Source of the DNA: Octopus vulgaris | Lineage: Eukaryota | Reading direction: 5' to 3' | DNA: 64,000 nucleotides | Assembly (NCBI GenBank): GCA_951406725.2 | Contig: OX597814.1 | Span: 111,972,001 to 112,036,000, forward strand | Shown: piece after piece, positions 41,507 to 42,984 of the stretch | Numbering within the stretch: the stretch's first letter is position 1 | How the letters are laid out: each line of letters starts with the position of its first letter | Notes under the pieces: generated by a model | Database searches by the model: none | Told to the model about the DNA's origin: nothing | The model's input: the letters and a program-made list of their open reading frames with translations, nothing else | Translations under genes and position numbers: made by a program

Positions 41507-41550
<44 letters not shown>

Positions 41551-41788
41551 TTTAGGGTAAAAATTGATATTTATCAATTAGAACCAGTGGTCTAGCATAT
41601 TAAAAAAGAATCCGAAGATTAAAATATTTATATATATAAATTAAGGACTGCACACGAAAAGTGGACAGTCAACATGCTAGATATAGACGTCAAATCGCCA
41701 TTCTCCACAAAAAAGTTTATGTTCTCAGATCAAACTCAACAAAACCAAAGTAATAAACAAGTGAAAAATATACGAAATAAATATTTAC

Positions 41789-41853
41789 CCATGTACTAAA
41801 TTTAGTTTCAGCTGTTATTTTCCGCAAGGAAAAGTGCAGCATCATCAGCATGG
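41789..41853 (-). ncRNA. Type I hammerhead ribozyme (family A, copy 1)
   Basis: Reverse complement of 42233-42297. Confidence 0.85.
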
Positions 41854-42232
41854 TCCCATATAAAATGTAATTTGCTGGACTAAATGCCAACACGACACCA
41901 AAATATCGCGTGCATGGAGTCCGGCCTATTACATTTGAAATATATATTTCAAATGCCACCACTTTTGGCGCGATGAGACCCGAGAAAATTAGCCTGCGGC
42001 TAATAGTTAGCAGCAGTCAATTTATCGGTTAGAGAACAAATATTTATAAAATTAAATTTAGGGTAAAAATTGATATTTATCAATTAGAACCAGTGGTCTA
42101 GCACGGGTCTCATCGCGCCAAAAGTGGTGGCATTTGAAATATATATTTCAAATGTAATAGGCCGGACTCCATGCACGCGATATTTTGGTGTCGTGTTGGC
42201 ATTTAGTCCAGCAAATTACATTTTATATGGGA

Positions 42233-42297
42233 CCATGCTGATGATGCTGCACTTTTCCTTGCGGAAAATAACAGCTGAAACTAAATTTAGTACATGG
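42233..42297 (+). ncRNA. Type I hammerhead ribozyme (family A, copy 2)
   Basis: CCAUG-CUGAUGA-U-GCUG-[CAC UUUUCC UUGC GGAAAA UAA]-CAGC-U-GAAAC-UAAAUUUA-GUA-CAUGG. Predicted cleavage after 42292. Confidence 0.85.
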
Positions 42298-42738
42298 GTA
42301 AATATTTATTTCGTATATTTTTCACTTGTTTATTACTTTGGTTTTGTTGAGTTTGATCTGAGAACATAAACTTTTTTGTGGAGAATGGCGATTTGACGTC
42401 TATATCTAGCATGTTGACTGTCCACTTTTCGTGTGCAGTCCTTAATTTATATATATAAATATTTTAATCTTCGGATTCTTTTTTAATATGCTAGACCACT
42501 GGTTCTAATTGATAAATATCAATTTTTACCCTAAATTTAATTTTATAAATATTTGTTCTCTAACCGATAAATTGACTGCTGCTAACTATTAGCCGCAGGC
42601 TAATTTTCTCGGGTCTCATCGCGCCAAAAGTGGTGGCATTTGAAATATATATTTCAAATGTAATAGGCCGGACTCCATGCACGCGATATTTTGGTGTCGT
42701 GTTGGCATTTAGTCCAGCAAATTACATTTTATATGGGA

Positions 42739-42803
42739 CCATGCTGATGATGCTGCACTTTTCCTTGCGGAAAATAACAGCTGAAACTAAATTTAGTACA
42801 TGG
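42739..42803 (+). ncRNA. Type I hammerhead ribozyme (family A, copy 3)
   Basis: Identical to copy 2, 506 nt downstream. Predicted cleavage after 42798. Confidence 0.85.
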
Positions 42804-42950
42804 GTAAATATTTATTTCGTATATTTTTCACTTGTTTATTACTTTGGTTTTGTTGAGTTTGATCTGAGAACATAAACTTTTTTGTGGAGAATGGCGATTT
42901 GACGTCTATATCTAGCATGTTGACTGTCCACTTTTCGTGTGCAGTCCTTA

Positions 42951-42984
<34 letters not shown>

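Follow-up and report, generated by a model that had tools for sequence, protein, structure and literature searches.

A circular RNA template and a helper from Penelope-like elements (PLEs) have been proposed for metazoan non-LTR retrozymes in the accessible text of Cervera and de la Pena 2020 (PMC7229834), and pLTR phylogeny supports the retrozyme–PLE link according to the accessible portion of Li, Clavereau and Pollet 2026 (10.64898/2026.07.22.740005). PLE insertions are described, in the available sections of PMC8557442, as often carrying an inverted 5′-truncated copy and a 30–40 bp tail at one end only, and the same sections give (TA)n as a frequent target of Naiad. Rotifer PLEs usually stand head-to-head, for which the available part of PMC3846280 proposes self-priming as the cause, and palindromes are reported there at inverted PLE junctions. 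On AT-rich DNA, the purified PLE of an anole cleaves both strands and extends both; in vitro, it initiates at two internal positions, which form the boundaries of the tail, and a dimer is predicted for it. Ribozyme cleavage is not needed, and uncleaved RNA is the main substrate (PMC11167929). The origin of the PLE inverted repeats and tail is called unresolved in the accessible text of PMC8557442 and PMC11167929. Two questions meet here: how retrozyme RNAs enter animal DNA, and how PLEs make inverted repeats and a one-sided tail.

At the locus described below, a 506-nt hammerhead unit forms two arms joined head-to-head within (TA)n (Table 1); the locus lies in the window, by which we mean the whole 64,000-nt stretch of Octopus vulgaris DNA that was analysed. 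We consider it likely, with a probability of roughly 0.7, that such inserts arise through twin priming by PLE machinery on retrozyme RNA.

Anatomy of the insert and its family

An earlier reading of this DNA, made from the sequence only, had described a minus arm of 560 nt and a plus arm of about 860 nt that both traverse the ribozyme cleavage site and both merge at their 3′ ends into (TA)n without poly-A. Every coordinate it gave was right: the cut predicted after u189 falls inside both arms, both flanks are (TA)n, poly-A is absent and the right 3′ end enters the repeat via the unit's own TATATATA. Neither arm continues past the junction, which is not palindromic. Where the passes of the two arms overlap, they show zero differences over 443 unmasked sites, a figure far beyond chance. 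Arms that both exceed one unit are atypical, being seen in 0/22 A+B inserts from the length-unbiased sets vs 11/26 from the score-chosen set, and the window insert is a long, young example of its family.

Table 1. Features of the insert in window coordinates; u1–u506 is the unit numbering, with its origin at 42104
Feature	Position	Strand	Basis
Left (TA)n-rich microsatellite, target	41248..41543	.	sequence
B arm, 560 nt, u386 to u506 and on to u439, 3′ end at fixed site B	41544..42103	-	exact match to tandem unit
Tail (u355-439), stretch between sites A and B, at B-arm end only	41544..41628	-	PLE tail by the published description, as far as accessible
B-arm copy of the type I hammerhead motif, cut predicted between 41794 and 41793	41788..41854	-	sequence
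Junction of the two 5′ ends, head-to-head, blunt, without microhomology	42103..42104	.	arm alignment
A arm, 860 nt, u1 to u506 and on to u354, 3′ end at fixed site A	42104..42963	+	exact match to tandem unit
One complete 506-nt unit	42104..42609	+	sequence, RNA fold
24-nt palindrome containing the ATATATAT run (u36-43), never a 3′ end	42131..42154	.	sequence, arm ends
Type I hammerhead motif, predicted cut between 42292 and 42293	42232..42298	+	sequence, fold; Rfam negative
Site A, internal copy, with rare GG>TA change at u345-346 (42448-42449)	42440..42457	+	end comparison
Site B, internal copy (CCCTAAATTTAATTTTATA)	42529..42548	+	end comparison
Two substitutions private to the window insert (471G, 491C)	42574..42594	+	also in minus arm, 42018 and 41998
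Second plus-arm hammerhead motif, predicted cut between 42798 and 42799	42738..42804	+	sequence
Right (TA)n, target, first 10 nt common to unit	42954..42992	.	sequence

The hammerhead motif comprises stem I, CUGAUGA, a long stem II, GAAA, a palindromic stem III and UA, with the core CTGATGA beginning at u135, and this core is intact in 239/244 anchored copies across three subfamilies. Rfam detected no hammerhead in the unit, its matches being TA-driven miRNA models under the cut-off. The 506-nt unit RNA is strongly folded (MFE −132.3 kcal/mol, z −5.3 vs dinucleotide shuffles), and the tail region by itself folds no better than shuffles (z +0.9). Intermolecular pairing of stem III is predicted for the unit, whose self-cleavage would probably take place as a dimer; the palindromic stem III and the dimer cleavage model come from the accessible text of PMC4209133. 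No stop-to-stop frame of at least 120 aa was found inside the element, which has a GC content of about 0.3 and no LTR. Short tandem units with a type I hammerhead each, absence of coding capacity, low GC and dispersed copies are the marks of a retrozyme, and the element is best read as a non-coding hammerhead tandem element, namely a non-LTR retrozyme. Elsewhere in the window, two open frames (50208-50612, plus strand; 56040-56570, minus strand) resemble by eye C-terminal fragments of non-LTR retrotransposon proteins, and 118-nt and 177-nt tandem pieces at 40457-40926 and 22551-22900 belong to one dispersed repeat family that looks SINE-like by eye.

We examined 117 distinct loci on many contigs. 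A first-look search of the 2.8-Gb genome with the unit returned 1499 candidates, 40 of which were scored, and these 40 loci are biased to long copies. A further 37 and 16 loci, length-unbiased, were retrieved with exact patterns that anchor one end, 18 duplicate loci being removed; together these three sets make up the first 93 loci, in which arm pairs were called by an automatic rule. Four loci were chosen by variant, and a later replication set covers 20 of the 31 further loci selected for it. The family divides into three subfamilies whose identity to the window is close to 98, 94 and 91 %. DNA-type runs X1–X3, under two organism labels (A and B), contain it at high depth.

Fixed 3′ ends and scattered 5′ ends

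The inserts have two outward 3′ ends in (TA)n, at fixed sites with one arm per site, and scattered 5′ ends. Site A consists of CCTTAATTGG followed by TA at about u347-354 and site B of CCCTAAATTTAATTTT followed by TA at about u440-447, so placed that some 90 nt separate them; past A and past B, the unit itself runs through a short TA run and then AAATA. The two sites are related motifs (CC, a TTAATT-like stretch, a TA run and AAATA), the likeness being greater in the 91 % subfamily, and they may form a candidate twofold binding element.

Opposed arms combined one A with one B end in 68/69 classifiable inserts among the 117 loci, with a single BB and no AA pair. The first 93 loci contributed 48 AB, the one BB and no AA, plus seven pairs with one unclassified end and 37 loci without a called pair; all four variant-picked loci were AB. 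The replication set of 20 loci yielded 16 AB inserts, one B arm whose partner ends short of A and three single arms, i.e. 16/16 classifiable pairs were AB. Over the two sets that were not end-anchored, the tally was 42/42, for which independent choice of ends would give a chance of 0.5^42. In the sole BB case, two subfamilies are joined over 45 nt of TA, and it is probably two insertions. Single A arms were accompanied by an inverted B stub of a few nucleotides in 9/25 cases vs 7/221 control TA-run entries (p 2e-6); a first, looser stub rule had been dropped, as 42/221 controls passed it, and the stricter rule was used.

Arm 3′ ends fell at A or B in 147/160 cases, a count inflated by the anchored sets, and in 64/70 cases in the unanchored first set. 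The 8-nt run at u36-43 was the 3′ end of 0/160 arms, so that pairing through TA alone does not select the site. The target was (TA)n or an AT-rich microsatellite, without poly-A, across the family loci. These counts bear on what the sequence-only reading had expected. Its head-to-head polarity was borne out, with no tail-to-tail adjacency in 93 loci, and so was TA microhomology at the 3′ ends, both of which share TA with the (TA)n target; that microhomology alone sets the 3′ breakpoints is contradicted by the unused run. Dispersed breakpoints, likewise expected, hold for the 5′ ends (84 distinct positions among 96) and fail for the 3′ ends. Fixed termini, which it had named as a refuting result and as the behaviour of a MITE, occur at the 3′ ends (A and B), in inserts that are otherwise not MITE-like.

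Among 96 5′ ends, none was 5 nt or less from the ribozyme cut, where 2.1 would be expected, and the 5′ stops showed no preference for paired RNA (P 0.91). Median arm lengths in the length-unbiased sets were about 110 nt for A and 186 nt for B; lengths were uncorrelated (rho −0.07, n 22), and A arms were often far longer than B arms. In unit coordinates, the distance between the two 5′ ends of a pair exceeded 15 nt in 40/48 pairs and was at most 15 nt in the other eight, vs 3.2 expected (p 0.011). Junctions gave a mixed picture of microhomology that we do not use as support: those without inserted letters had an overlap of at least 3 nt in 6/19 cases vs 6.7 % for random joins, 17/36 had inserted or unaligned letters and 12/48 were unscorable.

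Some individual inserts have features of their own. On two different contigs (L212:3470-3540 and L214:2930-3000), both arms start at u107-108 and the junctions are palindromic, with differing centres. In L090 (1850-2082), about 230 nt of foreign DNA stand between the arms, which begin with telomere-like AACCT repeats and include (CA)n as well as a short fragment of the unit. In L039, a 91-nt A arm occurs twice inside (TA)n, about 750 nt apart (665-755 and 1410-1500). B arms of at least about two laps seem to stop in or near the A–B segment (9/12, in a hand count whose interval was picked afterwards), which could reflect a protein roadblock or selection bias.

PLE machinery, template and rival explanations

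The family shows an inverted 5′-truncated copy placed head-to-head, a tail at one end and two fixed 3′ sites, as PLEs do, with a tail of about 90 nt vs the published 30–40. This integration footprint is best read as the PLE signature, the element behaving as a non-autonomous PLE; it is not an autonomous one, because it has no ORF for a PLE reverse transcriptase and GIY-YIG endonuclease. The footprint ties the retrozyme to PLE machinery with no need for sequence homology.

An abundant autonomous PLE family is present in the same genome, with an intact 781-aa frame that encodes RVT_1 plus, C-terminally, a GIY-YIG domain and has, ahead of the nuclease, a Cys motif resembling the one reported in Neptune and Nematis. 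Its copies have two TA-merging ends 35 nt apart (12 short, three tailed and one unmatched among 16 copies), which lie downstream of a ribozyme-like motif recognised by eye; in one copy (L170), the main arm is tailed and the inverted arm untailed. Young copies (L165-L180, e.g. L167:1842-4184:+) lie in (TA)n targets and have, by eye, a core of the CUAAGA type in the ribozyme-like motif, and TGACGTC blocks are repeated after the frame. None of 45 GIY-YIG loci, mostly of one family (150 of 6136 candidates scored), matched the unit in nucleotide sequence, and the 781-aa PLE is therefore an analogue rather than a proven helper. A ribozyme-pattern search with a shorter stem II gave four matches, two of them family-like deletions by eye, and no PLE partner, and a pattern for a possible sister family had no match.

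Priming from both ends of the break, as the sequence-only reading had it, is kept as the best model. A PLE protein would be supplied in trans, probably as a dimer bound around the A–B segment, and this putative dimer would cut both strands of the self-complementary (TA)n. Each 3′-OH could then pair with UAUAU at A or at B and prime reverse transcription on the sense RNA; the two cDNAs would stop at variable points and be joined by repair. The template would more probably be a ribozyme-cut, circularised monomer than a linear multimer. A further step, in which a PLE dimer on one circular 506-nt RNA carries out two simultaneous rolling-circle reverse transcriptions, one strand always from A and the other always from B, is a tentative proposal at somewhat under even odds.

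It had been argued that a circle follows from breakpoints being uncoupled from the cleavage site; this argument does not stand. The autonomous PLE also ends downstream of its ribozyme motif, and the anole PLE works on RNA that has not been cleaved and, in vitro, initiates at internal positions (PMC11167929). Read-through of the ribozyme is thus no proof of a circle, because the autonomous PLE of this genome shows the PLE signature too. The bearing of sequence variants is genealogical, and that is the one kind of support for a putative circular monomer RNA of the unit. We sorted variants by their spread over the passes of each insert. An apparent 5′-to-3′ polarity of two unit types was rejected as an artefact of BLAST gap placement, gone once the passes were realigned singly; within-locus rates inflated by this artefact were set aside, except for the zero of the window. 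A-to-I editing was likewise considered as a source of all-pass variants and dropped, there being no excess of A>G by eye.

In the largest subfamily (36 loci), there were 19 whole-insert haplotypes and six private all-pass variants, four of them in both arms. The variant of L045 occupies 9/9 passes of that insert and occurs nowhere else in the assembly. The GG>TA change has four occurrences genome-wide: 3/3 passes of the window insert and one pass of L039, namely the pass between its two ribozymes. The window has none of L039's three changes outside that inter-ribozyme monomer, and L039 lacks 471G and 491C, both present in the window. Because rare variants fill whole inserts in this way, we favour the ribozyme-cut, circularised monomer over the linear multimer, at slightly better than an even chance. 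A circle is not thereby proven, because arrays also duplicate units after insertion: one- and two-unit duplications are seen as 13 adjacent-pass and two period-two variants, some linked in 506-nt blocks (L226, L065, L222, L224, L064, L046, L213 and L236). Long arms and single-arm all-pass variants therefore prove nothing about the template. Judged by the geometry of their arms, L045, L033 and the window are the only inserts that would need either a circle or two variant template units in a row.

Twin priming at A and B could also start from a linear multimeric array transcript, with long arms derived from the array and from later duplication of units; within twin priming, we regard the linear transcript as doubtful, although it has facts in its favour. 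Uncleaved RNA is what the anole PLE mainly uses (PMC11167929), unit duplication after insertion is common, and in two loci of the first set (L035 and L042) variants common to both arms are found in some passes only. An unseen three-unit parent would account for L039 and the window, including 471G/491C, and the coincident 5′ ends of 8/48 pairs would fit run-off from one RNA end. Linear templates are, however, hard to square with the absence of both-arm partial-pass variants in the 27 two-arm loci of the largest subfamily (0 over 8321 site-calls), despite array singletons at 0.0015 per base. The parents that they require for the window and L045 are absent from the assembly, and L039 is itself unfit as a linear template, since its terminal pass carries GG and the pass upstream begins at u26. 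Most of our confidence outside PLE twin priming goes to fold-back, in which one cDNA primed at B self-primes and is copied to A, the centre of the palindrome being trimmed unevenly later. This would produce A+B pairing by construction and agrees with the palindromic junctions of L212 and L214, with the palindromes at inverted junctions in the accessible text of PMC3846280 and with the excess of coincident 5′ ends. We nevertheless hold it to be unlikely, since most pairs have non-coincident 5′ ends, arm lengths are uncorrelated with A arms often much the longer, the window junction has no palindrome and both tail boundaries are reverse transcription start sites in vitro (PMC11167929).

Priming by microhomology at any AT-rich point of a circular RNA, with dispersed breakpoints, was the mechanism first put forward; TA is indeed common to the target and both 3′ ends, but the fixed 3′ ends and the strict A/B pairing refute it, leaving it very improbable. 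We give equally little credence to an assembly chimera or to a DNA transposon of the MITE or foldback kind whose imperfect terminal repeats would be A and B. Fixed outer ends, a TA target and related A and B motifs would suit such an origin, and among the contig pieces listed for four runs covering the unit none spans the window junction, a gap that is uninformative as these are contigs only. Junction and length nevertheless differ in almost every insert, the ribozyme core is kept across all three subfamilies, the architecture recurs at 68 loci and no identical composite inserts at many loci were seen among the 117 examined. Twin priming by PLE machinery, our preferred reading, has points against it as well: no PLE with the nucleotide sequence of the unit turned up in the GIY-YIG loci or the ribozyme-pattern search, the tail is long for a PLE, and the coincident 5′ ends fit fold-back or linear run-off. 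If the tentative proposal of two simultaneous rolling-circle reactions on one circular RNA is correct, the tail of PLEs and their inverted pLTR would both stem from a single asymmetric step of twin priming, and the insertions would document the retrotransposition of circular RNA in an animal genome; a circular template would be evidence for the proposed, so far hypothetical, circular-RNA route. The one-arm-per-site rule makes a clear-cut prediction for the PLE assay already established in vitro, in which the 506-nt RNA, compact and with both start sites mapped, would serve as substrate.

Comparison with LINE-1, PLEs and retrozymes

In LINE-1 twin priming, both target strands prime on one RNA, which produces an inversion; L1 has a poly-A start, a variable internal second start and abutting arms. 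In the octopus unit, by contrast, both starts are internal and fixed, poly-A is absent and the arms have sequence in common. Listings and abstract openings of the open-access literature yielded no paper that applies twin priming to PLEs; older Penelope papers or supplements may hold related models.

Endonuclease PLEs, as described in PMC11167929 and the accessible text of PMC3846280 and PMC8557442, are alike in their 5′ truncation, partial tandems and inverted 5′ copy placed head-to-head, in the tail at one end, the AT-rich or (TA)n targets and the hammerhead with a palindromic stem III, and in internal starts distant from the ribozyme cut. The unit differs from these accounts in having no ORF, a longer tail and up to about seven tandem units per arm, and in its exclusive A/B pairing, counted here as 68:1:0, where the PLE papers, in their accessible text, have 'often' or 'optionally' at one end. 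Multicopy head-to-tail insertions are also formed by MRC1 and other non-autonomous Chlamys PLEs; according to the available sections of PMC8557442, these PLEs are algal and resemble an autonomous partner at the 3′ end, which we did not find for the unit, and Naiad/Chlamys lack canonical hammerheads.

Metazoan non-LTR retrozymes, as far as their accessible descriptions go, share ORF-less tandem units of a few hundred nucleotides, low GC, one type I hammerhead per unit and dispersed arrays. Insertion ends, inverted arms and a tail are not mapped in the accessible text of PMC7229834 and 10.64898/2026.07.22.740005, and the words 'inverted' and 'orientation' occur zero times in that of the former. 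The retrozyme–PLE link published there consists of shared ribozymes, co-occurrence and pLTR phylogeny, whereas here it is an integration footprint; circles are shown for the published retrozyme families in their accessible accounts, whereas the circle of the octopus unit is putative. Among the listings and abstract openings of the open-access literature, we found no report of a strict A/B rule or of a PLE footprint on a retrozyme. The architecture is already known for PLEs, and the retrozyme–PLE link is published; what this analysis adds is the footprint on a ribozyme repeat without an ORF, a longer tail, a count behind the one-arm-per-site rule and the use of variants to test for a monomer bottleneck.
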